A stretch of 59,384 bases of DNA, taken from Kiritimatiellia bacterium. Lineage in GTDB: Bacteria > Verrucomicrobiota > Kiritimatiellia > UBA8416 > JABMPJ01. A program made the position numbers and the translations under genes. The stretch covers positions 1 through 59,384 of the forward strand of contig JAOZSS010000002.1 in assembly GCA_029939545.1 (NCBI GenBank), given 5' to 3'. Shown here one piece after another: positions 40,472 through 59,384 of the stretch; position 1 is the stretch's first letter, and every line of letters starts with the position of its first letter. Below the pieces are notes generated by a model, which saw only the letters and a program-made list of their open reading frames with translations, was not told the DNA's origin and did no database searches.

Positions 40472-40969
40472 ATGTTCAGGTGCGTAAGATCTTGGACTAC
40501 AGCTTCGCGCAGTGGGGTGACGATCATTGAGCTTATGGTCGCCATGCTATCGGCAAGCGTGTTGGCCATCACGGCCGGTATTATCCTGGTGTACTGCTTC
40601 AGAACCCTGCGTGCGAACGGCGATGCGGTGGAGCTGCAACGGGATGTGGATATCACGACGCGGACCCTGTTCAGGGCTATTCGAACGGCTCGAGACAATG
40701 ACACAACGGTTTCCGGTGGTGGGACCACGCTGGAACTTGACGGAGGGGCCAGGACCTTCACGTTTCTTCCGAATGGGGGTGGTCTTGTCTATGATCCCAA
40801 CGTGGGTGTCAGTGGCGATGAGCAGATGCTTGCGAGCAACACATCCACGAACGCAAACGAATGCCGGTTTTGGGACAACGGCGATTCGATTAGAATATTG
40901 TTAACCGTTTATGCTCAAGATGATACAATTCAAGTCGATACCGACATACACATGCGTAACGAGATATAA
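40472..40969 (+). CDS. minor pseudopilin (prepilin-type N-terminus)
   Basis: SRSG|VTIIELMVAMLSASVLAITAGIIL. Confidence 0.7.
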   Translation: MFRCVRSWTTASRSGVTIIELMVAMLSASVLAITAGIILVYCFRTLRANGDAVELQRDVDITTRTLFRAIRTARDNDTTVSGGGTTLELDGGARTFTFLPNGGGLVYDPNVGVSGDEQMLASNTSTNANECRFWDNGDSIRILLTVYAQDDTIQVDTDIHMRNEI

Positions 40970-40972
40970 GCT

Positions 40973-42517: not shown

Positions 42518-42570
42518 ACATTTCTGCGGGATAGGGTAGTATTCGATAAGAATGTGATAGGAGGCTTGGT

Positions 42571-43173
42571 ATGAAGCGGTTGGGCATTGTCGGTTTAATT
42601 GGGATTGTTGTGGTTGCGGTCGTGATGGGCATATGCGGTGTGGGATGCGATACGGTGACCGATTCATCAGGCGCCATCAGCTTCACAACACCGCTAATGA
42701 CGGTGACGGGACGGTATGCCGTCGTGATTACCGTATCTGACACAAACAATAATCTCTACCTTCCCCTCATCTGGTCTGTCTCCGACTCGTCGCTGGGTGA
42801 CTTCACCGAGCAGGGAGGCTTGACCGCGCTCTACATGGGCGGGACCGAGGTCGGCATCAATACGATCACGGCGAGAGATCAGGGCAATGCCGAAGGAATC
42901 ATGGTGGTCAACCACGTTCCGGCTGACGGCATCAGTCTCAGCCCTCTAACCAACACCCTTGATGGTGCTGGCGCGCAAATGCAGTTTACCGTAGTCCCCG
43001 ATGGGCTTGCACTGCCCTTGGTATGGACGAGTGGCAACGAGGCGTTCGGTGTCTTTGTGGGCGGGGGCCAGTACGATGCCGTATATGCCGCTGTTGGTCC
43101 TGTCGGGGACAACTTCATCAGCGTCAGAGACCAGATGGGAGCCTCTGCTACCGCCATCGTCTATCACCGTTAG
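42571..43173 (+). CDS. lipoprotein with two Ig-like (Big_2-like) repeats, hypothetical
   Basis: AGGAGG Shine-Dalgarno and a lipobox-like VVMGIC|G. Internal repeat (LIWSVSDSSLGDF / LVWTSGNEAFGVF). Confidence 0.5.
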   Translation: MKRLGIVGLIGIVVVAVVMGICGVGCDTVTDSSGAISFTTPLMTVTGRYAVVITVSDTNNNLYLPLIWSVSDSSLGDFTEQGGLTALYMGGTEVGINTITARDQGNAEGIMVVNHVPADGISLSPLTNTLDGAGAQMQFTVVPDGLALPLVWTSGNEAFGVFVGGGQYDAVYAAVGPVGDNFISVRDQMGASATAIVYHR

Positions 43174-45051: not shown

Positions 45052-45116
45052 CGGTGGTCGGTATTTGTTTGGACCAGCCATGAAGCGTAGGCTCGGTCAC
45101 GATAAGGGGAGAAGAC

Positions 45117-46427
45117 GTGCGGCGATTCATCAATGAGCTCATCGCAGGCGAGATATCGCGGGCAACGCGGTACGGTGCCTGCGTGGTCCAGGTAGAGCCC
45201 CTCGGGTTTGACGACGGATTGCTGCTGGGCAAGTTGGATGCTCCCGCCCGTGAATCGGTTTCGCTGGACGAGTTCCGGGCGCATTCGCGGGCACGACCGA
45301 GCCCCGTTCATGTGTTGCTGAATGGGAATCTCAATCACCATTGCGACGTACAGGCATTGCTGCAGACCCTACACGAAGGACTCGGTCGTACCTCGCGCGT
45401 TGTAGCTGTGCTGTTCAGTCCGTACTGGGCATACGTCTATCGCGTGGCCACGGCGCTGGGTATTCGGAAAGGCGACATACCCACGACGTTTCTGACAGAG
45501 AGCGATCTCAGAAGTGTGGCGAAGCTGGCCGATTTTGAAGTTGTGCGGTTGCGTCATGTGGGGTTCATCCCATTCCGCATGCTGGGGCTTGGCACGTGGA
45601 TTAACCGCTTCCTGGCCGCCTGTCCTGGTCTGCGATGGCTCAGTATGACGAACGTCGTGGTGCTGCGTCCGATAACCCATGCCCGGGAGCGTCCTTCCTT
45701 GTCGATCATCATCCCGGCGCGGGATGAAGCGGGCAACATCGAAAACGCGCTGAAGCAGTTGCCCAGGCTGGGCGTGTCGTTGGAGGTCATCTTCGTGGAA
45801 GGGCATTCGTCGGATGGGACTTGGGACGAGATCCAGCGAGTGCAGGCGCTCTACGGAGACAGGTTCACGATCAAGAGTCTGCAACAGGAAGGCGTCGGCA
45901 AGAGTGATGCGGTGAGAGTGGGCCTCTCGCATGCCTCGTCCGAGCTGCTCACGATCCTTGATGCCGATCTCACCATGCCCCCAGAGAAACTCAGCTGTTT
46001 CTACGAGGCCTATGTCGCCGAGAAGGCCGACTTCATTAACGGATCGCGACTACTCTATCCCATGGAAGGTGAGGCCATGCGTCTGCTCAACAAGGTGGGC
46101 AACCTGGTCTTCGCCCGTCTGTTGAGCTGGGTACTCGACCACGATCTGACAGATTCCCTTTGCGGCACCAAGCTCTTTCGGCGCGATGACTATGAACGGA
46201 TGACGGCATGGCGACGGGATTTTGGCGACTTCGATCCCTTTGGCGACTTTGAGCTGCTCTTTCCCGCGGCATCGCTGGGAATCGGCTGCATAGATATGCC
46301 GATTCGCTACCGTGATCGAACCTATGGCAGCACGAGCATCTCCCGGTTCAGGCATGGGATCATGCTCTTTAGGATGGCGTGGATCGGGTTCGCGAAAATC
46401 AAACTGGGTGCACGCCGTGAGCATTGA
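45117..46427 (+). CDS. family 2 glycosyltransferase with degenerate N-terminal methyltransferase-like domain
   Basis: LSIIIPARDEAGNIE, VIFVEGHSSDGT, ILDADLTMPPE (DxD) and a C-terminal amphipathic/TM tail, as in polyprenyl-phosphate sugar synthases. The N-terminal ~180 aa lack a GxGxG SAM motif. GTG start. Confidence 0.75.
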   Translation: MRRFINELIAGEISRATRYGACVVQVEPLGFDDGLLLGKLDAPARESVSLDEFRAHSRARPSPVHVLLNGNLNHHCDVQALLQTLHEGLGRTSRVVAVLFSPYWAYVYRVATALGIRKGDIPTTFLTESDLRSVAKLADFEVVRLRHVGFIPFRMLGLGTWINRFLAACPGLRWLSMTNVVVLRPITHARERPSLSIIIPARDEAGNIENALKQLPRLGVSLEVIFVEGHSSDGTWDEIQRVQALYGDRFTIKSLQQEGVGKSDAVRVGLSHASSELLTILDADLTMPPEKLSCFYEAYVAEKADFINGSRLLYPMEGEAMRLLNKVGNLVFARLLSWVLDHDLTDSLCGTKLFRRDDYERMTAWRRDFGDFDPFGDFELLFPAASLGIGCIDMPIRYRDRTYGSTSISRFRHGIMLFRMAWIGFAKIKLGARREH

Positions 46428-47151
46428 CAGTCCGGCTCGCGAAGCGCTCATTAGTCGCACGATCCTGTCGAAACCGTCCATGAGGCGGCTGTACGAAGAG
46501 CACTACAGTCAGTACCGAGATGTGATCGGTCGCACACCCACCAACGGGCTCCTGGTCGAACTGGGGGCCGGAGCAGGTTTTGCGAAAGAGTGTGTGCCGG
46601 GTATCATTACGACCGATGTGCTCGAGTACGAAGGTGTCGACCGAGTTGTCGACGCGACGGAGATGCCCTTTGCGGACGGTTCGGTTCGGTTCATCGGTAT
46701 GATCAACGTGTTCCACCACATACCGGACGTGGAGCGCTTCCTGCATGAGGTGGCCCGTGTGCTGTGCCGCGGCGGCCGGATACTGGTGGTGGATCAGCAC
46801 AACGGATGGATCAGTTCGCCCATCCTGCGGTTTCTTCACCATGAGCCCTATTGTCCGAACGAGCCGCAATGGGATTTCGATTCAAGCGGTCCGCTGTCGG
46901 GAGCCAACGGAGCCTTGGCTTGGATCGTGTTCCGCCGTGACCACGGGCGGTTTGAAGCGATATTTCCCGACCTCCACCTCGTACGTTACGAGCCCACCGC
47001 GCCTCTGAAGTACTGGCTGTGTGGCGGGCTTACGCGGTTGAACCTTCTACCGGGGTGGGCCTACCGATGTGTTGACCGTTTGGAAAGGTTTCTTCTGGCC
47101 CTGAGCAGCAACTTCGGCAGCTTCTGCTATGTTGAGATTGAGCGGCGGTAG
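46417..47151 (+). CDS. class I SAM-dependent methyltransferase
   Basis: Motif I LLVELGAGAGF, then DATEMPFADGSVRFIGMINVFHHI. GTGA overlap with the GT2 stop. Start uncertain (GTG 46417 or ATG 46480). Confidence 0.7.
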   Translation: MSIDSPAREALISRTILSKPSMRRLYEEHYSQYRDVIGRTPTNGLLVELGAGAGFAKECVPGIITTDVLEYEGVDRVVDATEMPFADGSVRFIGMINVFHHIPDVERFLHEVARVLCRGGRILVVDQHNGWISSPILRFLHHEPYCPNEPQWDFDSSGPLSGANGALAWIVFRRDHGRFEAIFPDLHLVRYEPTAPLKYWLCGGLTRLNLLPGWAYRCVDRLERFLLALSSNFGSFCYVEIERR

Positions 47152-47153
47152 CC

Positions 47154-48533
47154 CTATCCGTACGCCTCAGGGCCGGGCTCCGGGATCTCTTCGAGCAGTT
47201 TGGTGACGATGTCGATCGATCCGATGCCCTCGGAGTCTGCCGCGAAGTTGGTTAGGATGCGGTGACGCAACACCGGTGCCGCTGCGTGGCGGATATCGCT
47301 GCACCCCACATGGATCCGTCCCTCCAGCACCGCACGCGCCTTGGCGGCCAGAACAAGATACTGCCCGGCACGTGGACCCGCACCGGTCGAGACGAAGTTC
47401 TTGGTCACCTCGGGAGCATCGTCATATTGCGGCCGCGTGGCGCGCACCAGTCGGATGGCGTACTTCACGACGTGGGCTGACACGGGGACTTTGCGGACCA
47501 CTTCCTGTAGTTTCAGTACATCCTCCTTCGTGATCACGCACTCGGGTGTCTGCACGGTCCCGGCCGTTGTGGACCCGACAATCTCCTCCTCTTCGTGCGC
47601 CTCGGGATAGTCGACCCAGATGTTGAACATGAAACGGTCCAATTGCGCCTCGGGCAGCGGATAGGTTCCTTCCTGTTCAATCGGGTTCTGCGTGGCCAGC
47701 ACGAAGAACGGCGCATCAAGCTTGTAGGTCTCGTTGCCGACCGTGACGCGCTTCTCCTGCATGGCTTCCAGCAGGGCGGCCTGGGTCTTGGGTGGCGTAC
47801 GGTTGATTTCATCGGCGAGCAGCAGGTTGCAAAAGATGGGTCCCTTAACAAAGCGGAACTCCTTCTCGCCGGTATCGCGGTTGCTCTCCAACACCTCGGT
47901 GCCGGTGATGTCGGTCGGCATTAGGTCGGGCGTGAACTGGATGCGCTTGAATTCAAGGTTGAGGACCTTGGCCATTGTGCTCACGGTGAGGGTCTTGGCC
48001 ATGCCGGGCAGCCCGATCAGTAGCGCGTGGCCGTGGGCGATGATGCACATCAGGATCTGGTCGAGCACTTCGCGCTGACCAACAATGACTTTTCCGACCT
48101 CGGCGCGGATCGCATCGGCCCGGTCCTTCATCTTCTCAACCAGGGCGAGCTCATCGCTTGTTGTATCTGCGGCAGGCATTGCAGCGGACGTTGCAGTGGG
48201 CTCTGCGGCCGGTTCGGGGGCGGCTTCGCCCTCCTTCACGACCTCACCGTTCAAGCGGAAGGTGCAGACCGTCTCACCCAGTGTGATCACGTCGCCGTCC
48301 GCAAGCAGCGAGCTGGCTACCATTTTCCCGTTCAGGGCCGTGCCGTTGGAACTGTTGAGATCTGTGATCCGCCACGCATCGCCGTCGGGTTGCAGCTCGG
48401 CATGTTGACCGGATATTTCGCCGTCCTCGATAACCAGGTTGGCCTCTTCGTCGCGCCCTATGATCAAGGCGGAGTCGGGTAGCTCCATTTCCTGTCCGGA
48501 AAAAACACCTTCGGTGAAAACTAACTTGGGCAT
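47154..48533 (-). CDS. FHA domain fused to MoxR-family AAA+ ATPase
   Basis: FHA region ([24 protein letters not shown]...[14 protein letters not shown]). MoxR core ([82 protein letters not shown]). Confidence 0.85.
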
Positions 48534-48561
48534 GCTGAGCTCCTTCTACGGTCCACAAACT

Positions 48562-49305
48562 CTAACGGGTAAGCTTTATTTCGCCAAGATCTTTGATTGA
48601 ACGCGTCACGCGAACACCGCCCAGTTTCGCGGCATAGTTGTGTCGGGGTAGGGGTGCACCCGGCTCGTACGACACGGGGTAGAGATCGCGCGCCCGCGTG
48701 ACCTGCCATCCGGGGCCCACATCCTTGAACAGGAGCAGCTTGAACGTGCGCCGGAACTCCCGGTGGCCTTCAGCCGATGACGTATCACGCACAAAGGTGC
48801 AGATGGCGCGGGCCGTGTTCCCACGGCCGGTGGTGCCTTCAAGACGGTGGATGAACTTCTTCTTGAAATAGGGTTCCGAGGCATTGACGATGTTCTTGAC
48901 CTTCTTGCGATCCTCCTTCGTGAGCGTGTTGGGTTCGCGGTGGAGGCGCAGCCCCTCGTAGAAACGATCCTTGTAGATCACGATCAGGTCATACTTGCGC
49001 ATCGGCAGTCCCTCGAACAGGAAACTGCGCCTGTTGCTGCCGGTGACCTTGCCTTTGTACACAAAACGGGGCTCATCCGCGGGAAGCGCCAGAACCTGCT
49101 CAATCGGGAGCCCCGGCGAGGCGATGGAGCCCTGGATGCCGCCCGTGGCGGAAGGGTCGGATTTTGTATAAAGGAAGCCGCGCCCGGGATCAATGGTGCC
49201 GTCGTCCCTGATGATACGAACACCCACTCCGACCGATTCCCGGGTCTCAGCCGTGGCTGTGCCGACCACAAGGAGGATGATGCCCAGGAGTGCGAGTGGC
49301 TTCAT
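48562..49305 (-). CDS. exported protein of unknown function
   Basis: Signal peptide MKPLALLGIILLVVGTATA. ATGA overlap with the upstream gene. No recognisable domain. Confidence 0.5.
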   Translation of the reverse strand: MKPLALLGIILLVVGTATAETRESVGVGVRIIRDDGTIDPGRGFLYTKSDPSATGGIQGSIASPGLPIEQVLALPADEPRFVYKGKVTGSNRRSFLFEGLPMRKYDLIVIYKDRFYEGLRLHREPNTLTKEDRKKVKNIVNASEPYFKKKFIHRLEGTTGRGNTARAICTFVRDTSSAEGHREFRRTFKLLLFKDVGPGWQVTRARDLYPVSYEPGAPLPRHNYAAKLGGVRVTRSIKDLGEIKLTR

Positions 49306-51497
49306 AATGTGTCCTTGGTTGCCTCGCGGTGGCCATCATCCTTGAGCTCATCTTCCGACATCTGTATCCAGCGATCGAATCGCTCAGCCTGGGGATGGAA
49401 CTGGAGGCGCTTGCGGGCTTCGACGCAGAAGGCCTTGAGCGAGGCGGTCGGTTCCTCCATGTCGATCAGGCAGTCGAGCAGGGTCTCCAAGGCGTCCCCC
49501 ATGTAGCTCGACGCCTCCAGGGCGTCGCAGTAGCCTTCCAGCAGTCGGCGGGCGCGGCGAGGCTGGCCTACCGATCGGTAGAGCTTCGCTTCCAGTAGCA
49601 TCAGATCTCCCGATATCTTACTCAGCGGGAATTGGCGTTCCCAGTTGCGCAATACATCATGCATTTCGGCATAGGCGCCCTGATCGAGAAAGGTCCGCGC
49701 TGTCTCGGAAGCCGCCGCTTCGAGTACGGCCTGGGTCTTCCAATCCTTCGAGCGTCCCCGCGACTGTGACCGGCGGTAGCTGCTCTGTACATCATCATAG
49801 TGCCGGGTCGCATCGTTCAGGTTCCCATCGAGAAACTCAACGTCGCCAAGGCGGATCTTGGCCCACTGGCGTGTCTCACCGGCACCACCGGAGAGTCTCA
49901 TGAGAATCTTGCGGGCGCCGACCAGGTCATCCATGTAATACATGAGGATTTCGGCTTTCCTGATCTGCAGCATGCTCCCGTCGGCTGCTCCAAATCGATC
50001 GGCCCAGTCGATGGCGGCCTTGGGGTCGACGACCGGGGCCACCGTGAGAAAATGGTCCTGTAGAGTCGTGAGGTGGTCGCGGGGCGCAGAGCGTTTGAGC
50101 GCATCCCAATGTTTGGAAAACAGTGTGGCCAGCAATACCTTGCCTTCTCCGAACGCGAGCGTGCGTCCCAGGTTGTTCCACATGCTCTTGTCCCAGTCGT
50201 GCGTCGGGTCCATGCCTTCCGGCGTTGCGCGGACGATGGCGAGACAGGCAGCACGAAAGGCTTCACGTGCCGTGGAGTCATCCAGCGAAGTTTCTGCATC
50301 GCTGTAGGCGTAGAAGGGGCGCACGGCTCGGGTCTTCTGCTTGCCCATGGCGGTGGTTAGGGCAATGGTGTGTTCGCGGACGCCCCTGAAGAGCCATGGA
50401 ATGCCGGATGCGCTGATCTCACGCTTGCCGGGCATTGTCCAGGTGTACGTGGTGTCCGCCGGGTTGCCCTTCGTCACGGCACCGACCCGGTAGTAAATGA
50501 GCGGCTTCTCGCCCTCGAACCAGTAGGTGTGCACCGGTTGCATGCGTATGACCGGCACGGGCGCGCCGTCGCGTGAGCCGACGCTCGCGAGAAGGGATCG
50601 TCCTGAACGAACAATCTCTTCATCGGCCACCACGCGGCTGGCCCACTTGGCGGTGCCAGGAAACTTCTCATACTTGGGGCGTGGGCCGCCTAAATCCTCC
50701 ATCGTGCTTCCCGGTGGCGCCCACGTCATCCATATGGCCCCTTTGTCCTCGATGAATGGACCCGGAATGCGGCAGGCGGAAAGGATGTCGAGCCGGTGCA
50801 GCCCTTCAGACAGGGTCCGGTATTGGCCGACGCCGCCCCACTTGTCGATCCGCTTGGAGAGCGAGATCGTCTTGCCGTTGATGCTAACCTTGGACTGCCC
50901 GGAAATGGTCATCGGCGCCAGCCATGTCCGGCCGGGCTTCTTCAGCTCCAGGTAAGAGAGCAGGTAGAACGCACAGGGGTCCGGGCGGCCCGTTGGGTCT
51001 CCTCCGATACAGAGCGCAGCCATGGGGTGACCCGGGTTCTGTCGGAAGTGTACGCGTGGACTGACCGATCCGAATCCGGCCAGGCGCGAGGCGGCCCCCA
51101 TGTCGCCGCGATCGGGATTGGCGCATAGGATCGAGCTCGGGGTCAGCCCGGTTTCGGGTTTCCACACCTTCAGGCTGCGCCCTGGCACCACGTAGATATC
51201 GACCGTGGTCCCTGCGGTGGGGGCCTCAACGACAGTGGCCAGGCCGGAGCCCTGATTGTGCCAGAGGGCATAGCTCTTCAGTGGGGACCCATCCTCCGCG
51301 AACGCGCGTGTTACAGGATAGGGTTCTGGGAGGATGCCGCCATCCGGAATGACGACGAAATAGCCCGCACTCTCATGCGTCGGAGCGGTGGAGAGGTGGT
51401 ACGTAAAGCGCAGGGGGGCTTCGCCGACCTTCCAGTCGGCTGCGACCGGGAGCGCCAAGCCAGAAATCAGTGCCAGCAACAGAAAACGGCTATTCAC
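49302..51497 (-). CDS. exported 731-aa protein of unknown function with helical-repeat (TPR-like) C-terminal third
   Basis: GTG start and signal peptide MNSRFLLLALISGLALPVAA. Overlaps both neighbours. No recognisable catalytic motif. Confidence 0.5.
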   Translation of the reverse strand: MNSRFLLLALISGLALPVAADWKVGEAPLRFTYHLSTAPTHESAGYFVVIPDGGILPEPYPVTRAFAEDGSPLKSYALWHNQGSGLATVVEAPTAGTTVDIYVVPGRSLKVWKPETGLTPSSILCANPDRGDMGAASRLAGFGSVSPRVHFRQNPGHPMAALCIGGDPTGRPDPCAFYLLSYLELKKPGRTWLAPMTISGQSKVSINGKTISLSKRIDKWGGVGQYRTLSEGLHRLDILSACRIPGPFIEDKGAIWMTWAPPGSTMEDLGGPRPKYEKFPGTAKWASRVVADEEIVRSGRSLLASVGSRDGAPVPVIRMQPVHTYWFEGEKPLIYYRVGAVTKGNPADTTYTWTMPGKREISASGIPWLFRGVREHTIALTTAMGKQKTRAVRPFYAYSDAETSLDDSTAREAFRAACLAIVRATPEGMDPTHDWDKSMWNNLGRTLAFGEGKVLLATLFSKHWDALKRSAPRDHLTTLQDHFLTVAPVVDPKAAIDWADRFGAADGSMLQIRKAEILMYYMDDLVGARKILMRLSGGAGETRQWAKIRLGDVEFLDGNLNDATRHYDDVQSSYRRSQSRGRSKDWKTQAVLEAAASETARTFLDQGAYAEMHDVLRNWERQFPLSKISGDLMLLEAKLYRSVGQPRRARRLLEGYCDALEASSYMGDALETLLDCLIDMEEPTASLKAFCVEARKRLQFHPQAERFDRWIQMSEDELKDDGHREATKDTL

Positions 51498-51831
51498 CTT
51501 TCGCTTTCTGCTTCTGCTTCGCGACGGGCCGTGCGAGCACTCTCTTTGCCGATACTCTGCCGCGCGTTTCCCTGAGCTTCGTGATCAGCACGGGCGGCTG
51601 TGGCGGCTTCTTGGCTTCGGTTCGCGATAGCGGGGTTACGGGACAGCAGCAACACGCATCCATCGTATCTGCCGATGAAGCGGTACGCGGTGGCGCAGGC
51701 GGCTTCTTGCGGTTGACCGGAGGCGGAACAAAGCCCTGTTCGTCGGATCCATCGCCAGCGCCCAAGACGGTTCCCGAGCACAGTGTGGCGGCCAGAATAG
51801 GCACCAAACCTCTGCTAAGCTTCTTTTTCAT
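51490..51831 (-). CDS. small exported Pro/Lys-rich protein with CCCC motif
   Basis: Strong GGAGG Shine-Dalgarno 6 nt upstream of ATG 51831, 20 nt after the ycaO stop. Signal-peptide-like MKKKLSRGLVPILAATLCSGTVLGA. Mature part is PPPVNRKKPPAPP...DACCCCPVTPLS...KKPPQPP...KQKQKAKGE. Confidence 0.45.
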   Translation of the reverse strand: MKKKLSRGLVPILAATLCSGTVLGAGDGSDEQGFVPPPVNRKKPPAPPRTASSADTMDACCCCPVTPLSRTEAKKPPQPPVLITKLRETRGRVSAKRVLARPVAKQKQKAKGE

Positions 51832-51851
51832 ACGCGACCTCCATCTGCATA

Positions 51852-53102
51852 CTACCACCCGCTCGGATAGGAGTTCAAGACCTCATCCCGGGTCCATCGC
51901 CGATACAGAACGTGACTGTTAGGAGGATGGTAGGGGAGCGCATCCGAATAGCCCGGCACGACGACCTGCACCACGGGGAATCCGATCTCCGGATCGGTGA
52001 AATCAACCACGAAGCAGTCGAGACCGAGCTTGGCATAGATGGCGAGGGCCTGCTCAATGTCGTCCAGGCAGTCGTCTGACGGGGTGCCCGGGTCAAATGG
52101 AACCCGCTCACCGTCTTCGAGGAAGGCGGCATGCGTGAACGGTACAAACCCGAACATGAAAGCGGAGAGGAGGTTGTCTTCGTCATCTCCCGTACATTTC
52201 AGGTTGCGGAAATCATGCTTCAAGACGCGCTCCTGGTCGGCAGGCCGGGCTTCGATGAACTCGTCCAGCCGCCGCCCCTGCACGTACTCGGTGAAGACGC
52301 GTGTCAGGGCCAGCTCGCGGTTGAAGGCCGCACCGACCTTGAAGAAGTGATGAAACTGGAACGCCTCGGGAATGTTTGGGTCGCGGAAGTAGGCCCCGAT
52401 ACAGGGCAGCTCTCCTCCGAACGAGAGATCCTTGATCGTGACCTCAATGCCCTTCTCCTCCACAAAAGCCAGTAGCTCCTGAATCATCGGACTTGGAATC
52501 GATGCGGGGTCGATCGTGGGCACCACCATCCTGTTCTTGAGGATGGTGATGTGCGTACGGCGCTCGAAGATCTCGGTCATCGCGTGAACCAGGGCCTCCT
52601 CCAAACGGTTCCCGGACGCCAGTCCGTTGGGTCCGCTGATCAGGCGGATATACTCAATGGGCAGTGAAACGGTCTTCTTGCTCAGCAGCGAGAAGCCGTC
52701 GACCCAGTGTCGCGCACAGTCGAGCGCCTTGATGCACTCCAGCAGCGCCGGTGTGAGGCTGGATACATGTGGCAGCATCGCTTCAATCGGTAACGCGTCT
52801 GCAATCTCGTCCTGGTATCCAACCCTGTAGCCTGGCAGCGACGTTACCGCGCGCGCCGCCATCCATTCAGCACTCTCAGCCAGCGCACCGGCCCGGCTCC
52901 ACATCTTGGAGGTCCCTTTGCCCATCGCCCGGAACTCAAGCTCATCAATAAACAGGGCCGACCAATGCAGGTGCTCCGCCACCTCTTCTTCGATGAATCG
53001 GTAGTCATATCTGGCGCGCAGGATCGGCTCCAGGCGAGCAACCGTATGCTCCGGTGTCTCGCAACGCCCCCCCGCTATTCGTTTACAGCTTTGTAGTTTC
53101 AT
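51852..53102 (-). CDS. ycaO: YcaO-domain protein (ATP-dependent amide-backbone activating enzyme family)
   Basis: RCETPEHTVARLEPIL, GKGTSKMWSRAGALAESAEWMAAR (E-x-x-E ATP/Mg site), GPNGLASGNRLEEALVHAMTEIFERR and VVVPGYSDALPYHPP near the C-terminus. Confidence 0.85.
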   Translation of the reverse strand: MKLQSCKRIAGGRCETPEHTVARLEPILRARYDYRFIEEEVAEHLHWSALFIDELEFRAMGKGTSKMWSRAGALAESAEWMAARAVTSLPGYRVGYQDEIADALPIEAMLPHVSSLTPALLECIKALDCARHWVDGFSLLSKKTVSLPIEYIRLISGPNGLASGNRLEEALVHAMTEIFERRTHITILKNRMVVPTIDPASIPSPMIQELLAFVEEKGIEVTIKDLSFGGELPCIGAYFRDPNIPEAFQFHHFFKVGAAFNRELALTRVFTEYVQGRRLDEFIEARPADQERVLKHDFRNLKCTGDDEDNLLSAFMFGFVPFTHAAFLEDGERVPFDPGTPSDDCLDDIEQALAIYAKLGLDCFVVDFTDPEIGFPVVQVVVPGYSDALPYHPPNSHVLYRRWTRDEVLNSYPSGW

Positions 53103-54343
53103 CCTGTTCTCAACCCCGGTGGTGGCACGCCCTCACCCGGCGAAAGCCACCCATCAATATCGGTTGCAGCTTGAATCCCCTCTGCGATGCATTGGGCGAC
53201 GGTGGCGCCGCCATTCAGCATGCCGCCGGCGGTGAAGACGTTGTCGGCGGATGTGTCGGGGAGGTCGTCGGCCACTCCGAGTTCCATCGCTTCAATGACG
53301 AGGGATACGGGCATAATCCTCTCGCCTCCGGTCATGGCACGTCCTGCGGACGGCGGCAGGACATGTGCGACGCGCAGACCTGTCACACGGCCCCGCGCGC
53401 TCGTCTCGTACCCCAACGGCTGTGTGAGCGGAAGGTAGTGTACCCCTTCGCTCTTGAACCAGTCCTCGCTCCGATGCCAGTGCATTTCCGAGCGCGGCCC
53501 TCCATAGACAATGTAGACGTTGCGTGCCCCCAGCCTCTGCGCGGCGACGGCGGCGTCCATGGCACAGTCGTCGCCGGCGAGTACCACGACTTCGTCGGGA
53601 ACAGTGGTGCGTGATCCGGCTTTGGTCTCACGAAGAAAATCGATACCGCTCATCACGTTCTCTGCCGCCCCCAGTGAAGACTCCTGCCATAAGCCAACGG
53701 CGACGAGGACGGCATCGTAACGGCTGCATAGCGACTCGAGTTCAATATCCTGCCCGAGCGCTTCTCCCAGGCGCAGGGTCAGGCGGCCGACCGACAGGGC
53801 CGGCGCGAGCACGGCATCGATCTCCGGTTGGATGTTGGGCAGGCGGCGCGATGGAATCAGGATGTGAGGCGTTCCACCCAAGGCGCTTTCCCGCTCGATG
53901 ATCGTAACGCGGTGTCCCTGTTCGAGGAGCCTGACCGCGCACGCGATCCCCGTGGGGCCGCCGCCCACGATCCCAATGTGTTGTCCAGACTCCCTGTCCG
54001 GCAGGACTACGCCCGGCAGACCGGTGTCACGCGCCAGCCATGCTACGGTGTACTGAATGTCCAGGATAGGCGTGGGATCCTGCCCCAACGCACGTTCGAC
54101 GCGGGCGCCTTCGTTGAAGATCCACGGGGGAGTCAGATGCGAGCACAGCTCGGGCAGCGGGTTGGTCTGTCTCAGGATCTCGTAGCTGCGGGCACTGTCG
54201 CCATCCGCGAATGCCTTGACGAAGCCCGATACATCGGTGTGGTCTGGGTAGGCCGCACTGTAGCACGCTAAGGCGGACGCATGACAGCGACGCGCCTGGT
54301 CGACCAGACGATCGGGATCGTATGTTTCCGAGGGGCTACTCAT
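53099..54343 (-). CDS. GltD-like FAD/NAD(P)H oxidoreductase with degenerate N-terminal Fe-S domain
   Basis: Two dinucleotide folds (IGIVGGGPTGIACAVRLLEQGHRVTIIERESALGG; VVVLAGDDCAMDAAVAAQRLGARNVYIVY). N-terminal helical region is like the glutamate synthase small subunit, but the Cys ligands are largely absent. Confidence 0.75.
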   Translation of the reverse strand: MSSPSETYDPDRLVDQARRCHASALACYSAAYPDHTDVSGFVKAFADGDSARSYEILRQTNPLPELCSHLTPPWIFNEGARVERALGQDPTPILDIQYTVAWLARDTGLPGVVLPDRESGQHIGIVGGGPTGIACAVRLLEQGHRVTIIERESALGGTPHILIPSRRLPNIQPEIDAVLAPALSVGRLTLRLGEALGQDIELESLCSRYDAVLVAVGLWQESSLGAAENVMSGIDFLRETKAGSRTTVPDEVVVLAGDDCAMDAAVAAQRLGARNVYIVYGGPRSEMHWHRSEDWFKSEGVHYLPLTQPLGYETSARGRVTGLRVAHVLPPSAGRAMTGGERIMPVSLVIEAMELGVADDLPDTSADNVFTAGGMLNGGATVAQCIAEGIQAATDIDGWLSPGEGVPPPGLRTG

Positions 54344-55316
54344 TCGCCACCTTCTTCCCTACAGGCGCCATGTAGATCGCGAACTCCTCCTTTCCGTCCA
54401 CCCCGATGAGCGCGTCCATCTTGACCTGGTTGTAGGCGAGCATGGCGCATACGCCGGCACCGATCGACTCGGCGGCGAGGTAGAGGTTCTGGCAAACGTG
54501 GCCCGCTTCAATGGCAATCATGCGGTGCGCAATGGGACCGTAGCGCCACTCGGTACGGTAGGGGACGGCGGTCCAGACAAAGACGACGGCCGCCTGCGGT
54601 GGGGCGGTCTGTCCGTAACATGCCGCCTTGATCCTGGGTGCCAGTGCGGCATCCTCACGAATCTGGATCAGTGCATGCTCGTGCGGCAGGTAGCGGTAGA
54701 TCCCCGGCACCAGGCCCTCCACGCGATTGAGAAGGAGATAGGTCTCGAACGGATGTCGCGCTCCGCCGGATGGCACCGTGCGGTACTGGTTGACAATGCG
54801 GCCTTCCGCATCGCGGTCGACCTTGGCGACCCCCTGCGTACACCACAGCAGGAAGCTCAGCTCCGCCCGTGTGAGGGGCTCGGCCGCATAGGCACGCACG
54901 CTGCGTCGCCGCACAATGGCATCTTTCAACGGCATCGTGCCAAGGTCGAGCGTTTCCGGGTGGGGGAGGGCCATGCGTTTGGCATGGGTCGGCACCGGTT
55001 GCGCTGCCGGGGGAGCGGGTAGGCCCTTGCGCTGATCGGTCTCGGTACGCCAGTCCCCCATATACCCTTTCAGGAAGACGCGCAACTGTTCCCGTGGCAG
55101 CTCTGCGAGTGGCTGGACCTCGGTGGCATGGGCGCACAGCGGAAGGAACAGCAGGACGAAGAGGACGCTGGTGTTGTAATTCAGAAGTCCGCGTAGTACA
55201 TGGTTGTCATTCCGAGCGAAGTCGAGGAATCTCCAAGTCATTGGGTGCCACGGAGATCCCTTGGCAAGCTCGGGATGACATCGTGGATCGATCTCTCTTT
55301 CGGATCTGGCCGTCAC
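54336..55316 (-). CDS. SagB/ThcOx-type FMN dehydrogenase (nitroreductase fold) with hydrophobic N-terminal segment
   Basis: IVRRRSVRAY, FLLWCTQGV, YRTVPSGGARHPFETYLLLNRVEGLVPGIYRYLPHEHAL, AIEAGHVCQNLYLAAESIGAGVC. Start is either GTG 55316 (4 nt after the upstream stop) or ATG 55241. Both lie in or next to a palindromic repeat. Confidence 0.8.
   Translation of the reverse strand: MTARSEREIDPRCHPELAKGSPWHPMTWRFLDFARNDNHVLRGLLNYNTSVLFVLLFLPLCAHATEVQPLAELPREQLRVFLKGYMGDWRTETDQRKGLPAPPAAQPVPTHAKRMALPHPETLDLGTMPLKDAIVRRRSVRAYAAEPLTRAELSFLLWCTQGVAKVDRDAEGRIVNQYRTVPSGGARHPFETYLLLNRVEGLVPGIYRYLPHEHALIQIREDAALAPRIKAACYGQTAPPQAAVVFVWTAVPYRTEWRYGPIAHRMIAIEAGHVCQNLYLAAESIGAGVCAMLAYNQVKMDALIGVDGKEEFAIYMAPVGKKVANE
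55206..55279. repeat. 74-nt palindromic element (arms GTCATTCCGAGC / GCTCGGGATGAC) of the widespread GTCATTCCGAGCGAAGTCGAGGAATC type
   Basis: Read directly. 12-bp outer stem (one G-U) with inner complementary GGAATCTCC/GGAGATCC. Translates as the familiar spurious VIPSEVEES / LDFARNDN peptides. Confidence 0.75.
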
Positions 55317-55319
55317 AGG

Positions 55320-58300
55320 CTAAAGCGCCTCGTTGAGCTTCTTGTAGTAATCGGCGACGAGGTTGCGGTAGCGCGGTGGCGCATCGTCGGGGCCAGCCGC
55401 CAGAACATCGTCGAGGAGTGCGGATGAGCGCCCACCGGTGAGTGTTGCGGAGGGGCCGGCCTGGAGCTGGGTCCGCGCGCGCTTGAGCGCCACAACCGCC
55501 TGCTTGCGGTGCTCTTTGATCTGCTCGATCGACCGCCCTGCGGCAACCGCATCGGCCGCCTGCCGCAGGTGATGGGCGGCGGTCTTGAAGGAATCGGCCC
55601 GAATGTTCTTGAGCGATGCCTTGGTGTACATGGCATCGGCCTGCTTCGCCATCAGGGCTTCCATTCCGTCGAGCGAACCCTCCTCGGTGGAGTCCATGCG
55701 CCGTGTGCCGCCACCCATGCCGATATCGTCGGCTTTGCCGGAGGCCTGCTTGCCGCCGCCGGTGGCTGCGGTGGTGGCTTCACCGTCCAAATCAACCTGT
55801 CCGTCCTGGGTGGGATCCTGTGTGCGACGAGCCTCGATATTCGAATCGCCTTCGCCGATCGTGCCGGACCCGGACGCGTTCTCTCCCACGGCCATGCCCT
55901 CGCGGCCCACGTTGGATCGGCCATCCTGTTCCTTATGGTCAGGAGTCATGTTGCCCGACTTACCCTTGGCCGAGAAGCCGGTAAGGTCGCCCTCCTTCAC
56001 TTCCCATCCGATCCCGGGATCGTCACCGACGGCGTGGTTCGACGCGCCGTCAACAGCTTCCTCGGCACCCTCCTCGGCCTCTTCGAGTAGATCGCCAATC
56101 AGGTCCTCGGCTTGGGCGGCCAGCGCACCCAGGGCGATGCCTTCTTCCGGCATCTCTTCCCGGTCCATCGCCTCGGTGGTGATGACGTCGTCTTCTTTCT
56201 CGTCCTGCAACCATTCCTCGAGCTTTTCAAAGCGCTCCTCGGCCTCCTCCATCCTCTCGAGCAGGTTCTGACGGTCACGCTTGGCGTAAGCCTTCTCGGT
56301 AGGATTCTCAACGTCAATGCCGGCGGCCTCCTGCTCTTCTTCGTCCATGATCTCGTGCTCTTCAAAGATGCTGAAGACATCCTCGACCAGCTCGTTGGCG
56401 ATGCTTAGCTCTGCGAAGATATGCAGGTCGCGCGGAATCTCCAGGAGGGCTTGCTTCGTGTTCTTAAGGATCTCCTGGTATTCCTCCTCCATCATATCGA
56501 TCATCTCTTCATTCGACGCGTCGCCCTGCTCTTTTACCATATCCATGGCCTGAATGGCTTTCTCGTGAATCGCGCGGATCTTTTCGAGCTTCTCACCCGC
56601 AAACTGCAGCACATCGAGCATCTGCTCCTCGCGTTCGCCCTGCTCGGATGCCTTGATCGCGTTTAGATGGTTCTGCAGGGCTTCCAGCTTGGTCAGAGCT
56701 TGCTTCTCGTCGGGAAGCGCGGCGGTGGGCTGGTTGTTGTCGAGGTCTTCGGCGGCCAGCAGCATGTCCTCGCGAATGCCGGCGTCATCGCAGCGGGTCG
56801 CGAGCTCGATGAGAATGGAGGCGAAGGCCTGGTCGTTGGCCGCAACAGACGCGGACTCCTGTTTGCAGGCATTGCCGAAGTCCGTGAGATCCTCGGCCAG
56901 GTCGTCCTGCATGTCAACCACACTGGATCCGACCTCGGTTCTGGTCTTGGCATACTTCTGCGTATTCTGGATGACCAGCGTCTCTCTGCGGATGAGGGCG
57001 TCCAGCATGTTGGAGAGCGCGCTGACGCGTTGTTCCACGCGGGTCCGTACGGCACCCGCCTGCGCGTAGGTGAGTTGCCTGAGAATCTTCTCCTCCATGT
57101 TGATGGCATCGTTGCAGAGCGTGGCCTTATTGTCATTCACGGGCAGGCGCGCGAGGATCTCGATGACCTCCCGCATTTCGTTCAGGTAGAGCGCTTTCGT
57201 GGCGGGCGTGAGACTGCCCAGCGGCTCGCCCGGCGCGGCCAGCAGGTCGCGCGTTACCATGCGGATCTGGCGCTGCTGTTCGGCCGCCCCATTCCACTGC
57301 TGCGCGGTGGTGGCCATGAGCGTGGCCTGGCAGGCGCGGGTGCGGGCAATGTTGTCGCGCTGCATGTCGATCAGACGCCCGAGCGTGGAGGCGACTTCTT
57401 CGTCGAGCTTCCTCTGCTCTTTGGCGGCATCCGCCAGCGATGCCGCATTGAAGAGGATGGTGTCGGAACGGACGGTGTGGGGCTCGCCGGGCCGCGTGTC
57501 GCGCGCGACGAGGCGGAATGCGATGGTGCGTCCCTCCTGCTCGTCAATGGCCTCACTCCAGAGCGTGACGAACGACTTCGCCCTGCCGGGGGTCCACGCT
57601 CCAACCTTCTCGCCTGCCTCGCTGCGCTTTGAGCCGGGCTGTACTCGTTCGAGCCACAGGTCGACCAGGCCGTAGTCATCATCCACGGCAAAATCGATAG
57701 TAGGCTTGGTGCCCTGCGGCAACGTGGGGCGGCCGGTTGGGGCAATGATCGTGATGACCGGCGCGTTGTCTGGAATAATGGTGAAGCCCACCTCCGTATC
57801 GATGCTCTCGCCATACGTGTCGGTCGCGCTGATCGATAGGCTGGTGCCCTGATGAATGGTGAGTTCCGCTGCTCGTCTGTTTTGCGCGTCGGCTGACAGG
57901 GGTTGCAGTGGAATGGGGGTGTCCTGTTGGAGCTGGGCGGATGCGGAAGCGAGTGCTCCGTTACAGGTCAATGTCAGGGCTACGCGCGAGCCTTCGGGGA
58001 TCGCGATCGTATCGGCCAGGCCGTCGAACGTCGCCGGTGCGATGCCGGTGTAGGGGGGCGGGGTGACGGTCAGTTCAACCGCAGTGCAGGCCAGCGGGGG
58101 GCGCGGCGTAATCTCGAACCACTCGGGAAAAGGTGCGTCTCCGGCACGGAACCGGTAGCGCACGGCCGTGGTCAGCAGCGGAATGCGATGCGAAAAGCGT
58201 TCCTCGGGGTCGCCTTTGATGGTCCCGAGCGTGTGGGTCGAGGCGTCGCCGTCGGCGGGTCTGATATCCAGCAGTACGCGGTGGCCTTTATGCCCCGCCA

Positions 58301-58991
58301 CCGTGCAGGCGAGTACCAGCGGCTTGCCCTGTAGTGCTGTGTCGTTGCCCGGTGTTACGGTCAGGAGCTGGGTGAGACTGACCGGCGGGGTGTCGGCGAA
58401 CGGGTTGGTCACCCGCCACATCGCGGTGGCCCAGGCGCGTCCGGTCAGGGCGGTAGGCAGCAGGATGACCGCCAGCGCCACAGAGAAACCCGCGAAGGCC
58501 CAGCGGTGGAGTTTCCTGTTCTTCATGCGCTTCACACTGACCGTGTTCCATCCCCTGACGTCACGCTTGAGATACGCGTTCTTGAAGGGATCGTTTCCGG
58601 GCGTGGCTGCAAACTGGAGATAGTTGATCAGGTGGTTGTCGAGCTCCGGGAACGCGTGCTCCACGGATGCCGCAACAGCCTGCGGATTGAGCGGGTGGCG
58701 CACGGTGCGCAGCAGCCACCAGATCGTAGTCCCCACCACGCCGAGCAGGAGCAGGAAGACGGTGAAGCGCGCCGGTCGACCGAACTGGAGCAGGAGATCT
58801 GACAAGACAAACACGAACAGCCCGCCCAGCATCACGGCGGTCCCGATCATCAGCCGCACCTGCGCCTGCCAGCGCCGCACCGTCCGGCCAATGCGTCCCA
58901 GTTCCTTGTTGAGTTCTGCCTGCGTCATCCTTGTTCTTCCTGCCTGGATCACACCACCACCGGGGTTGCCCCGGTGGTGGCCGAGAGCCAT
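55320..58991 (-). CDS. giant membrane-anchored protein, DUF4175-like (N-terminal TM hairpin, beta-rich middle, coiled-coil, highly acidic region)
   Basis: TM helices MIGTAVMLGGLFVFVLSDLLL / FTVFLLLLGVVGTTIWWLL, followed by AASVEHAFPELDNHLINYLQF. Long E/D-rich segment. C-terminal PPRYRNLVADYYKKLNEAL. Family name is from memory. Alternative start ATG 58928. Confidence 0.6.
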   Translation of the reverse strand: MALGHHRGNPGGGVIQAGRTRMTQAELNKELGRIGRTVRRWQAQVRLMIGTAVMLGGLFVFVLSDLLLQFGRPARFTVFLLLLGVVGTTIWWLLRTVRHPLNPQAVAASVEHAFPELDNHLINYLQFAATPGNDPFKNAYLKRDVRGWNTVSVKRMKNRKLHRWAFAGFSVALAVILLPTALTGRAWATAMWRVTNPFADTPPVSLTQLLTVTPGNDTALQGKPLVLACTVAGHKGHRVLLDIRPADGDASTHTLGTIKGDPEERFSHRIPLLTTAVRYRFRAGDAPFPEWFEITPRPPLACTAVELTVTPPPYTGIAPATFDGLADTIAIPEGSRVALTLTCNGALASASAQLQQDTPIPLQPLSADAQNRRAAELTIHQGTSLSISATDTYGESIDTEVGFTIIPDNAPVITIIAPTGRPTLPQGTKPTIDFAVDDDYGLVDLWLERVQPGSKRSEAGEKVGAWTPGRAKSFVTLWSEAIDEQEGRTIAFRLVARDTRPGEPHTVRSDTILFNAASLADAAKEQRKLDEEVASTLGRLIDMQRDNIARTRACQATLMATTAQQWNGAAEQQRQIRMVTRDLLAAPGEPLGSLTPATKALYLNEMREVIEILARLPVNDNKATLCNDAINMEEKILRQLTYAQAGAVRTRVEQRVSALSNMLDALIRRETLVIQNTQKYAKTRTEVGSSVVDMQDDLAEDLTDFGNACKQESASVAANDQAFASILIELATRCDDAGIREDMLLAAEDLDNNQPTAALPDEKQALTKLEALQNHLNAIKASEQGEREEQMLDVLQFAGEKLEKIRAIHEKAIQAMDMVKEQGDASNEEMIDMMEEEYQEILKNTKQALLEIPRDLHIFAELSIANELVEDVFSIFEEHEIMDEEEQEAAGIDVENPTEKAYAKRDRQNLLERMEEAEERFEKLEEWLQDEKEDDVITTEAMDREEMPEEGIALGALAAQAEDLIGDLLEEAEEGAEEAVDGASNHAVGDDPGIGWEVKEGDLTGFSAKGKSGNMTPDHKEQDGRSNVGREGMAVGENASGSGTIGEGDSNIEARRTQDPTQDGQVDLDGEATTAATGGGKQASGKADDIGMGGGTRRMDSTEEGSLDGMEALMAKQADAMYTKASLKNIRADSFKTAAHHLRQAADAVAAGRSIEQIKEHRKQAVVALKRARTQLQAGPSATLTGGRSSALLDDVLAAGPDDAPPRYRNLVADYYKKLNEAL

Positions 58992-58997
58992 CGCCCG

Positions 58998-59384
58998 CTA
59001 CGGAAGCTTATACACCTTCACATTATTAATCGATACGCCCTGCGCCGTCCATATATAGACCGAGAAGAAGCGGACCTGCCGGAGATGTTTCTTGGCGGCC
59101 GAGGAGAGCTTCTGCATGGGGAAGTCGAGCGAGATCTTCTTCCATGAACCCGGGAACCCGGTCTCGGCTTTGCTCTTGTAGACCATGCGTGTCTCGCCAG
59201 GGCAGGGGGTGTCGTGTGGGCGTACGCCGGGCTTCCAGCGATAGCCGGCGAAGTAGACGCGCGTGGGCCCATACTTGTTCTTCGTGTTGGCCTTCAAATC
59301 CATTGTGCAGCGGTAGCGGGCATTGGGGTCGAACTTGATGAGCTGGGTCTCCACCTTGTTCTCGCCGCCCTGCTTAGGCGTAAT
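58998..59384 (-). CDS. hypothetical protein, C-terminal part (5' end outside window)
   Basis: Reading frame stays open to the window edge beyond the listed GTG 59354. Ends ...FFSVYIWTAQGVSINNVKVYKLP, 6 nt before the next gene. Jelly-roll-like ending, but no family assigned. Confidence 0.5.
   Translation of the reverse strand: MTPKQGGENKVETQLIKFDPNARYRCTMDLKANTKNKYGPTRVYFAGYRWKPGVRPHDTPCPGETRMVYKSKAETGFPGSWKKISLDFPMQKLSSAAKKHLRQVRFFSVYIWTAQGVSINNVKVYKLP

Follow-up and report, generated by a model that had tools for sequence, protein, structure and literature searches.

Why should a chain of envelope genes carry a YcaO enzyme, a SagB-type dehydrogenase and an NAD(P)H flavoprotein in its midst? 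The question is raised by positions 47154-59384, minus strand, of a 59,384-nucleotide stretch of contig JAOZSS010000002.1 from a Kiritimatiellia bacterium (the window, numbered 1-59,384). YcaO enzymes are known for antibiotic-like peptides and for a single modification of a protein, namely the thioglycine in methyl-coenzyme M reductase. We suggest, with a probability of roughly 0.55, that YcaO, the SagB-type enzyme and the flavoprotein are here a built-in modification module of a MoxR/VWA envelope system, and that they act on the run of cysteines in a small exported protein encoded beside YcaO. The nine genes of the chain are best explained as the promoter-distal two thirds of a conserved, envelope-spanning system of bacteria of the Planctomycetes-Verrucomicrobia-Chlamydiae (PVC) group, namely Kiritimatiellae, Lentisphaerae and Verrucomicrobia.

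Linkage of the YcaO module to an envelope system

The surroundings of YcaO were compared in a census of 80 species-level genome loci with 10-kb flanks, mapped by tblastn with the window proteins and extra genes of one Lentisphaerae locus and, separately, by label-free clustering of all flanking open reading frames (ORFs). Close homologues of the window YcaO number in the hundreds (55-84% identity), and all named ones come from Kiritimatiellae, Lentisphaerae or Verrucomicrobia. A partner family is kept in 32 of the 33 loci that have at least 8 kb on both sides of the YcaO orthologue, a Bat/MoxR-type partner in 31, SagB or the flavoprotein in 28 and both of these in 23. Gene order has been rearranged several times across the loci while the gene set has stayed together, which argues for functional linkage. 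The initial annotation had joined the YcaO trio to the envelope genes, and the 31 loci, spread over Kiritimatiellae, Lentisphaerae and Verrucomicrobia, bear this out. Label-free clustering brought up no recurrent family other than these partners at the 80 loci.

One lone YcaO is present among the well-flanked loci, in L048 (L followed by a number denotes a fetched locus, P a fetched protein), a 418-kb contig of an Akkermansiaceae metagenome-assembled genome where no partner gene lies within 10 kb on either side. In L014, L019 and L057 the YcaO orthologue is without partners in flanks of 8-10 kb, on one side only.

The genes of the window, from the truncated end of the operon to its last gene, are as follows (w1, w2, w7 and w8 are labels used below).

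58998-59384, minus strand: w1, partial first gene, the C-terminal 128 codons of an exported protein of ~200 aa; the frame runs off the window end; no Pfam family
55320-58928, minus strand: w2, giant membrane protein of 1202 aa (as in database copy P0241); no family
54336-55316, minus strand: SagB-type FMN (flavin mononucleotide) dehydrogenase with an N-terminal Sec signal peptide (TIGR03605)
53099-54343, minus strand: GltD-like NAD(P)H flavoprotein, short form, predicted cytoplasmic (Fer4_20 and Pyr_redox_2)
51852-53102, minus strand: stand-alone YcaO, 416 aa, predicted cytoplasmic (PF02624)
51490-51831, minus strand: small exported protein, 113 aa, candidate substrate (signal peptide, GGAGG ribosome-binding site, CCCC core)
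51643-51654, minus strand: four Cys codons (residues 60-63 of the small protein), predicted modification site (dominant CCCCP[VI][TA]P core)
49302-51497, minus strand: w7, exported protein of 731 aa (signal peptide; no family)
48562-49305, minus strand: w8, exported protein of 247 aa (signal peptide; no family)
47154-48533, minus strand: FHA-MoxR AAA+ ATPase, last operon gene (FHA, AAA_3, AAA_lid_2)

All nine consecutive ORFs of the chain first described are present at the expected coordinates in the ORF list of the window. Its junctions are tight for the most part: genes overlap by 8 nt between SagB and the flavoprotein (54343 and 54336) and between the small gene and w7 (51497 and 51490), by 4 nt between the flavoprotein and YcaO (an ATGA overlap; 53102 and 53099) and between w7 and w8 (49305 and 49302), and 28 nt separate w8 from MoxR. 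The junction of w1 and w2 is looser than had been stated, since the database copy of w2 (P0241, source NCBI) is 1202 aa long, which puts its start at 58928 and leaves a gap of 69 nt behind the upstream gene. The small gene has its own GGAGG, as noted before, 7 nt ahead of the ATG at 51831, and no terminator-like site or hairpin was found on the minus strand between 46900 and 59384. The frame of w1 is open to the window edge, and the operon is thus truncated at that side. Profile matches back the identities given at the outset to YcaO, the SagB-type dehydrogenase, the GltD-like flavoprotein and FHA-MoxR, and signal peptides are found on the three proteins described as Sec-exported unknowns (the small protein, w7 and w8). 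No Pfam or NCBIfam family matches the small protein, w7, w8, w2 or the partial w1, and the PADLOC defence models match none of eight proteins of the system.

Many loci end at contig ends, and the tblastn counts per family over the 80 loci are minimums: flavoprotein 57, w2 49, SagB 42, w1 38, GATase1-like protein 30, small protein 28, w7 16, DUF4159 and l277 15 each, BatA, w8 and MoxR 14 each, B12 radical SAM 11, DUF58 and c16 9 each, and a TfuA-YcaO fusion 5. The closest relatives of the window (L003 and L004, YcaO 82-84% identical) have the order BatA, GATase1-like, w1, w2, SagB, flavoprotein, YcaO, small gene, w7, w8, MoxR, and the Chthoniobacteraceae layout runs from BatA through GATase1-like, w1, w2, SagB and flavoprotein to YcaO. 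DUF58 and BatA occur together in L010, L011, L083, L084 and ~25 metagenome loci, and both are absent from the window, which is cut at w1. Because the orthologous operons continue upstream with GATase1-like and BatA genes, the lack of DUF58/VWA partners on which the initial annotation had remarked is an edge artefact: L003 and L004 have BatA, and DUF58 and DUF4159 belong to the wider system.

The small protein was the starting point of a second census, which covered JGI metagenome loci. Its commonest layout consists of two divergent operons, DUF4159, c16, l277, DUF58, BatA, GATase1-like, w1, w2 in one direction and small gene, w7, w8, FHA-MoxR in the other. Of 59 informative metagenome loci, 48 have w7 next after the small gene, and in 41 a divergent DUF4159 gene faces the small gene. 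The YcaO-centred and small-centred layouts overlap, which points to one system of ~22 kb and ~15 genes. From these gene orders we infer a full set made up of DUF4159, two unnamed exported proteins (l277, c16), DUF58, BatA, GATase1-like, w1, w2, SagB, flavoprotein, YcaO, small protein, w7, w8 and FHA-MoxR. By their N-termini, w1, w7, w8, l277, c16, DUF4159, the SagB-type enzyme and the small protein are predicted to be exported, and BatA (VWA), the GATase1-like protein and w2 to be anchored by transmembrane helices, while FHA-MoxR, DUF58, YcaO and the flavoprotein are without signal peptides and predicted cytoplasmic. An all-against-all hhalign comparison of w1, w7, w8, l277, c16, DUF4159, GATase1-like, TPR and SagB proteins gave no pair above 4% probability of remote homology.

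The host system is a PVC-specific elaboration of MoxR-DUF58-VWA operons of the Bat (Bacteroides aerotolerance) kind. MoxR AAA_3, DUF58, BatA VWA, GATase1-like, DUF4159 and TPR proteins are common to both; the PVC version differs in the FHA domain fused to MoxR, in the lineage-specific proteins w1, w2, w7, w8, l277 and c16, and in the YcaO/SagB/flavoprotein module and the free-standing small Cys protein, which it alone has. The gene combination had been thought undescribed, and no description was found in the literature searched: no paper linked YcaO with MoxR, searches for YcaO with Akkermansia or Verrucomicrobia gave unrelated papers only, DUF4159 was discussed only in the Pfam paper, and a combined search including BatA and DUF58 gave noise.

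As to the other components, full-length orthologues of w1 measure 196-238 aa, carry signal peptides and lie directly upstream of w2 in 38 loci. In w2, three N-terminal transmembrane helices are followed by three Ig-like domains, then by a long helical bundle of acidic character, a conserved but disordered segment rich in Gly and, last, C-terminal helices. An AlphaFold2 (AF2) model of its orthologue P0246 (predicted local distance difference test, pLDDT, 71.8) matched only generic tandem Ig arrays when compared with the PDB by Foldseek. The Gly-rich segment (~residues 950-1080; 922-1054 in P0246) is disordered in the AF2 model and at the same time dense in invariant residues (…GKSGNxTPDHKEQDGRSNVGRQGM…GGGK…). 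None of 53 w2 homologues has a Pfam domain on record. The name DUF4175-like, first given to w2, is not supported: eight family members gave no hidden Markov model (HMM) match to DUF4175 (PF13779) even at E <= 5. The likeness that the initial annotation had drawn to the DUF4175/TIGR02302 proteins of MoxR operons lies in general traits (large, membrane-anchored, with acidic low-complexity parts, beside MoxR-type genes). A weak, sub-threshold YbgF/TPR match at residues 594-682 suggests that the C-terminus of w7 may be TPR-like. At the loci mapped, w8 always lies between w7 and MoxR. FHA-MoxR matches FHA at 65 bits and AAA_3 at 212 bits, besides AAA_lid_2, and the same FHA-like N-terminal sequence is present in all seven orthologues whose N-termini were read.

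A methyltransferase gene convergent with FHA-MoxR ends at 47151. It belongs to three plus-strand genes (43186-47151) that converge on the MoxR end and encode a 621-aa multi-transmembrane protein with no Pfam match, a family-2 glycosyltransferase and the class I methyltransferase. L003 and L004 are without these three, and their MoxR is directly followed by the genes found at 40472-43173 of the window.

The three enzymes

The window YcaO matches PF02624 at 183 bits over profile positions 1-324 of 325, and falls below the cut-offs of all NCBIfam YcaO subfamilies: 79 bits against 365 for TIGR03266 (McrA-glycine thioamidation), 67.6 against 219 for TIGR03604 (SagD-type cyclodehydratases of thiazole/oxazole-modified microcins, TOMMs) and 92 against 700 for NF040716 (E. 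coli type, RimO accessory), where only residues 141-391 align. Its length is 416 aa, compared with 586 aa in E. coli YcaO. An AF2 model (pLDDT 84, predicted TM-score 0.86) superimposes on E. coli YcaO, LynD and two archaeal YcaOs with TM-scores of 0.62-0.71 (4q86, 4v1u, 6peu, 6cib) and on McbD with 0.54, at 13-23% identity. The motifs ExxE (E76/E79) and ExxER (E177/E180/R181), which align to GEYFER and SEVFER of the E. coli protein, show no variation; an invariant LP[YF][HY]P(P) stands ~25 residues before the C-terminus and is not the canonical terminal PxPxP. Given the orthodox fold, the invariant acidic ATP/Mg motifs and the absence of a curated subfamily, this YcaO looks catalytically intact and appears to form a clade of its own. 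The initial annotation had left room for the housekeeping E. coli-type clade, to which the NF040716 score does not admit it. Automatic annotation names hundreds of these genes (including homologues P0003, P0017 and P0029) "S12 methylthiotransferase accessory factor", and the same score marks this as over-annotation.

The SagB homologue scores 131 bits with TIGR03605 (cut-off 78.4), and among PDB entries it comes closest to 3eo7 and to CyaGox, a thiazoline oxidase of cyanobactin synthesis. Of 43 homologues, 41 (the window protein among them) have the FMN phosphate-binding motif RRSxRx[FY]. At the Lys-Tyr motif, reportedly the catalytic motif of azoline dehydrogenases (work ascribed to Melby et al. 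2014), 27 of the 43 have WKY and 6 have WRY, among them the protein of the window. A hydrophobic N-terminus had been noticed at the outset; it turns out to be a real export signal (…LFLPLCAHA, with TEV after the cleavage site), and the true start probably lies downstream of the GTG at 55316. Nearly all homologues carry an N-terminal signal peptide, which argues that the SagB-type enzyme is exported, and 22 of 42 have a lipobox-like Cys, so that the signal is of the lipoprotein type in about half. This complicates a simple scheme in which YcaO and then SagB act in the cytoplasm: in place of a cytoplasmic SagB-family dehydrogenase complexed with the cyclodehydratase, an exported one is predicted.

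The flavoprotein was identified as GltD-like by its Fer4_20 and Pyr_redox_2 domains in a profile search. In most lineages its counterpart is a protein of 830-875 aa that combines Old Yellow Enzyme (Oxidored_FMN), Fer4_20 and Pyr_redox_2 domains (e.g. in L001, 7243-9867, L084 and L085). Short forms are found, besides the window, in L003, L004, L007, L012 and L031, and no separate Old Yellow Enzyme gene was found within the window.

The small protein as candidate substrate

The initial annotation had singled out the small CCCC protein for complex prediction with YcaO and did not argue that it is the substrate. It is the most conserved unnamed component of the system. By a word-indexed search the family comprises at least 529 clusters (90% identity); no Pfam domain is recorded for any of them, nor an informative name. 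The common pattern consists of a signal peptide, GDGSDExGFVPPP, a Pro-rich linker (PPAPPR), SSAET and xxACCCCPVTPxSRTEAKKPPxPPVLITKLK, and the great majority have the core CCCCP[VI][TA]P. In 22 loci, including the window, the small gene lies at most 700 nt from YcaO on the same strand.

Where the enzymes change, the core changes as well. L070, L074, L077, L078 and L082 have no SagB or flavoprotein match and carry instead a 918-aa TfuA-YcaO fusion upstream of the PVC-type YcaO, followed in four of the five by a B12-binding radical-SAM enzyme (L082, 6249-13092; L074, 7260-13141; L077, 4039-9947; L078, 1186-8014). Wherever a small gene is visible at these loci, its core is PGGCTTPM. TfuA-YcaO and SagB were never found together in one locus. 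A further variant has a CGCC or GGCC core and the arrangement small gene, YcaO, B12 radical SAM (L067 included). Bottromycin-type pathways likewise have partner-independent YcaOs and B12-binding (class B) radical-SAM methyltransferases, and the TfuA-type loci, with two YcaOs and a B12 radical SAM, resemble them in enzyme set only. A ~630-aa B12 radical SAM is also encoded at some SagB-type (CCCC) loci (L001, 1-1762; L008, 634-2547; L025, 4914-6737; L031, 5998-7827) and is thus not exclusive to the TfuA variant. A Laminin_G_3 protein stands behind the TfuA variant in L074, L077 and L082.

The origin of the small protein points in the same direction. An exhaustive HMM search of 1.84 billion representatives returned only 45 relatives, and the distant ones are N-terminal arms of full-length DUF4159 proteins. 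Many such proteins carry a Cys-free version (…GETLIPYPPPPATPMSRSEKKNPP…) at the position of the small module, and in L172, an IMG/VR contig (3984-5519), the CCCC form is itself fused in frame to DUF4159. Where ACCCCPVTP stands in the alignment, the fused forms without Cys read PYPPPPATP or PYPGPPATP. Related cases are L173 (9475-9927), L174 (4254-4733), P0316, P0325, P0314 and P0318. By this homology, the small protein is a detachable N-terminal module of DUF4159 proteins. The Cys-free forms inspected have no YcaO nearby, but their contigs are short, and the correlation of Cys run and YcaO rests on few loci. Around the small proteins P0138 and P0192 no system gene is visible.

Taken together, the adjacency to YcaO, the covariation of the core with the tailoring enzymes and the derivation from the DUF4159 arm indicate that the small protein is a likely YcaO substrate, and its four-Cys run is most likely the target of the module. 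In being a short ORF beside the enzyme with clustered modifiable residues (CCCC, GGCTT, GGCC), it resembles a precursor of the ribosomally synthesised and post-translationally modified peptides (RiPPs). A variable core and release by a protease are not seen: the core is nearly invariant, no protease recurs, and the module is also found fused to DUF4159.

Well-conserved copies of the small protein are encoded on phage-like contigs as well (L171, 9986-10234, IMGVR_UViG_3300024520_000105; L169; L170; L168, 7552-7803; L086, 10001-10255). In L171 the gene stands just upstream of terminase-large-like and major-head-like genes (weak PHROG matches, E 1e-3 to 1e-5), in L168 it is one of a series of small genes on the same strand, together with HNH and ARPP-1, and in L086 it lies on a contig of 508 kb that may be a huge phage, given that IF3 and DNA methyltransferases are encoded there too. 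No system enzyme lies nearby in any of these loci. A tblastn search of GenBank phages with the mature small protein gave no match, although the low-complexity filter may have masked the Pro-rich query.

In L082 (14503-17029), a confirmed extracytoplasmic function sigma factor is followed by a protein with an anti-sigma-like N-terminus (judged by eye) and a periplasmic DUF4159 domain behind a GDGSDEPGFV linker. The same fusion occurs in L074 (14724-16703) and L067 (2708-5020), and in L078 (8565-9167) the periplasmic part is a Cys-free copy of the small module only. These fusions suggest that the module may be sensed by, or signal to, a sigma/anti-sigma pair. A small protein 100% identical to that of the window is encoded in L088 (JGI contig Ga0190344_1014019, 1959 bp), which points to the same organism or a very close relative in that metagenome sample.

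Proposed mechanism, rival readings and meaning

In the sequence of events that we propose, the 113-aa protein would be made in the cytoplasm, where YcaO, with ATP, would activate the backbone amides at the four cysteines (…A-C-C-C-C-P-V-T-P…) and turn them into thiazolines before Sec export. On the periplasmic side, the exported SagB-type FMN enzyme would oxidise the thiazolines to thiazoles, while the NAD(P)H flavoprotein may handle electrons for some cytoplasmic redox step. The outcome would be a stretch of rigid poly-azol(in)e within a Pro-rich linker protein, and the modified protein would work with DUF4159, w7 and w8 as a structural or binding subunit of the MoxR/VWA complex rather than as an antibiotic that is secreted. 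Azolines and azoles restrict the peptide backbone much as proline does; a YcaO-cyclised Cys run in place of polyproline is therefore a coherent, if inferred, reading of the alignment with the Cys-free arms. The initial annotation had offered modification of an exported structural protein as one of two options, the other being a repurposed YcaO chemistry in an envelope stress or remodelling complex. Of its central idea, the conserved, integral place of the trio and its unlikeness to a classical antibiotic cluster stand, and modification of an exported protein is probable.

Several points weigh against the proposal. Linkage, intact motifs, export signals, covariation and the DUF4159-arm homology are computed results; the identity of the substrate, all chemical steps and their order are deduced from them. 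The window SagB has Arg-Tyr in place of Lys-Tyr. By signal-peptide prediction it is exported, whereas YcaO and the flavoprotein are cytoplasmic; being on opposite sides of the membrane, the flavoprotein cannot be its direct electron partner, and a Sec-exported FMN enzyme needs a periplasmic flavin supply. The window flavoprotein is the GltD-like half only, its N-terminal Old Yellow Enzyme domain missing. No E1-like, Ocin-ThiF or RiPP recognition element (RRE) domain occurs in the nine window proteins or among the recurrent families of the 80 loci. The flanks of the Cys run are far more conserved than those of a usual RiPP precursor, and the run could instead bind metal or be a redox-active thiol site. 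No small gene, and no CCCC or GGCTT ORF, lies within 10 kb of YcaO in Chthoniobacterales-type loci, a gap bridged indirectly by the small-centred census. Finally, the joined layout was pieced together from overlapping loci and was seen on no single contig.

Some of these points would be better accommodated by a redox or metal device, a serious competitor that we nevertheless hold to be distinctly the less probable. The CCCC run would then consist of free thiols (a metal site, or a persulfide or electron relay), the FMN protein and the flavoprotein would move electrons, and YcaO would act elsewhere, e.g. on the Gly-rich segment of w2 or on a cytoplasmic loop. An exported SagB and a cytoplasmic flavoprotein suit a trans-membrane redox theme more readily than they suit a soluble azole synthetase, proteins of the GltD kind serve generally as modules for electron input from NAD(P)H, and the disordered Gly-rich stretch of w2 is rich in invariant residues; Bat proteins, moreover, have reportedly been proposed to supply periplasmic reducing power (Tang et al. 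1999). This reading does not account for YcaO adjoining the small gene in 22 loci, nor for a core that switches among sets of heterocyclisable residues along with the tailoring enzymes. Lys-Tyr, the hallmark of azoline dehydrogenases, is kept in most SagB homologues, and w2, large and probably inserted co-translationally, would seem a poor YcaO substrate.

An ordinary natural-product cluster for TOMMs, or linear azol(in)e-containing peptides (LAPs), is unlikely. The small protein would then be a precursor with its N-terminal part as leader, its azole peptide would be released as an antibiotic or signal, and the envelope genes would serve export and immunity. The azole synthetases McbBCD of microcin B17, SagBCD of streptolysin S, BalhCD/BcerB and cyanobactin LynD/ThcOx likewise combine YcaO with a SagB-family FMN dehydrogenase; encoded beside the YcaO is a short peptide made by the ribosome that carries consecutive Cys (or Cys/Thr), and the predicted conversion of thiazoline to thiazole is the same. 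YcaO, a SagB-type dehydrogenase and an adjacent short Cys-rich ORF are the minimal LAP set; the variant loci add the RiPP tailoring enzymes TfuA-YcaO and B12 radical SAM, and the copies on phage-like contigs imply that the small gene can function as a portable unit. The PVC module differs, however, in having no E1-like, Ocin-ThiF or RRE partner, a YcaO below the SagD-type cut-off, an exported and often lipoprotein-type dehydrogenase, an extra NAD(P)H flavoprotein and a MoxR/VWA setting. Its precursor carries a Sec signal peptide at the N-terminus and is 60-100% conserved over its whole length across classes and phyla, the core being nearly invariant, and the in-frame fusion to DUF4159 marks it as a domain of a protein rather than a peptide to be released. 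The recurrent families include no leader protease, ABC exporter or immunity gene, and the window is without TfuA.

A housekeeping, E. coli-type YcaO that aids S12 methylthiolation by RimO, as homologues are named in several JGI records and as NF040716, the best NCBIfam match by E-value, might suggest, or a chance neighbour of the envelope genes, is effectively refuted by the NF040716 score, the length of the protein and a linkage conserved in three PVC lineages through several rearrangements of gene order.

In its working the proposed module would resemble a minimal azole synthetase made up of YcaO and SagB and, in sister lineages, tailoring of the thioamide or bottromycin kind. It is closest in spirit to the modification of McrA, in that it would act, by analogy, on a conserved functional protein. 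The McrA thioamidation YcaOs, with or without TfuA (M. jannaschii MJ1094, M. kandleri YcaO), are stand-alone proteins of ~400 aa like the PVC enzyme, and of the proteins with solved structures MJ1094 matches the PVC enzyme best in sequence; radical-SAM enzymes co-occur in both, and TfuA is present in the PVC variant loci. The differences are a TIGR03266 score far below the cut-off, a window without TfuA, a small exported Cys-run protein as the putative target and the presence of a SagB-type oxidase. A wider reading, which we put forward tentatively and at somewhat less than even odds, is that RiPP-type chemistry serves as a housekeeping modification in PVC bacteria: YcaO and an exported SagB-type oxidase would turn the tetra-Cys run into a poly-thiazol(in)e that mimics proline and takes the place of the polyproline segment of the DUF4159 arm, in a subunit of a trans-envelope MoxR/VWA machine; sister lineages with TfuA-YcaO and B12 radical SAM would have versions that are methylated or carry thioamides, and phage copies of the substrate would perhaps tamper with the machine or exploit it.

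What the gene neighbourhoods describe is a YcaO module fixed inside a widespread, uncharacterised envelope system, with a nearly invariant small exported protein as what would be its obvious target. If the proposal is true, it would correct the annotation of hundreds of genes as "S12 methylthiotransferase accessory factor", and the pairing of an exported FMN dehydrogenase with a cytoplasmic, ATP-dependent enzyme would be a puzzle open to experiment. An azole-modified structural protein of the envelope and an azoline oxidase at work outside the cytoplasm could each be the first of their kind. The MoxR/DUF58/VWA Bat-like systems, whose function is so far unexplained, would gain a first biochemical handle, and the chemistry of azoles or thioamides would become part of cell-envelope structural biology in three groups (Kiritimatiellae, Lentisphaerae and Verrucomicrobia) that matter in soil, in fresh water, in the sea and in the gut.

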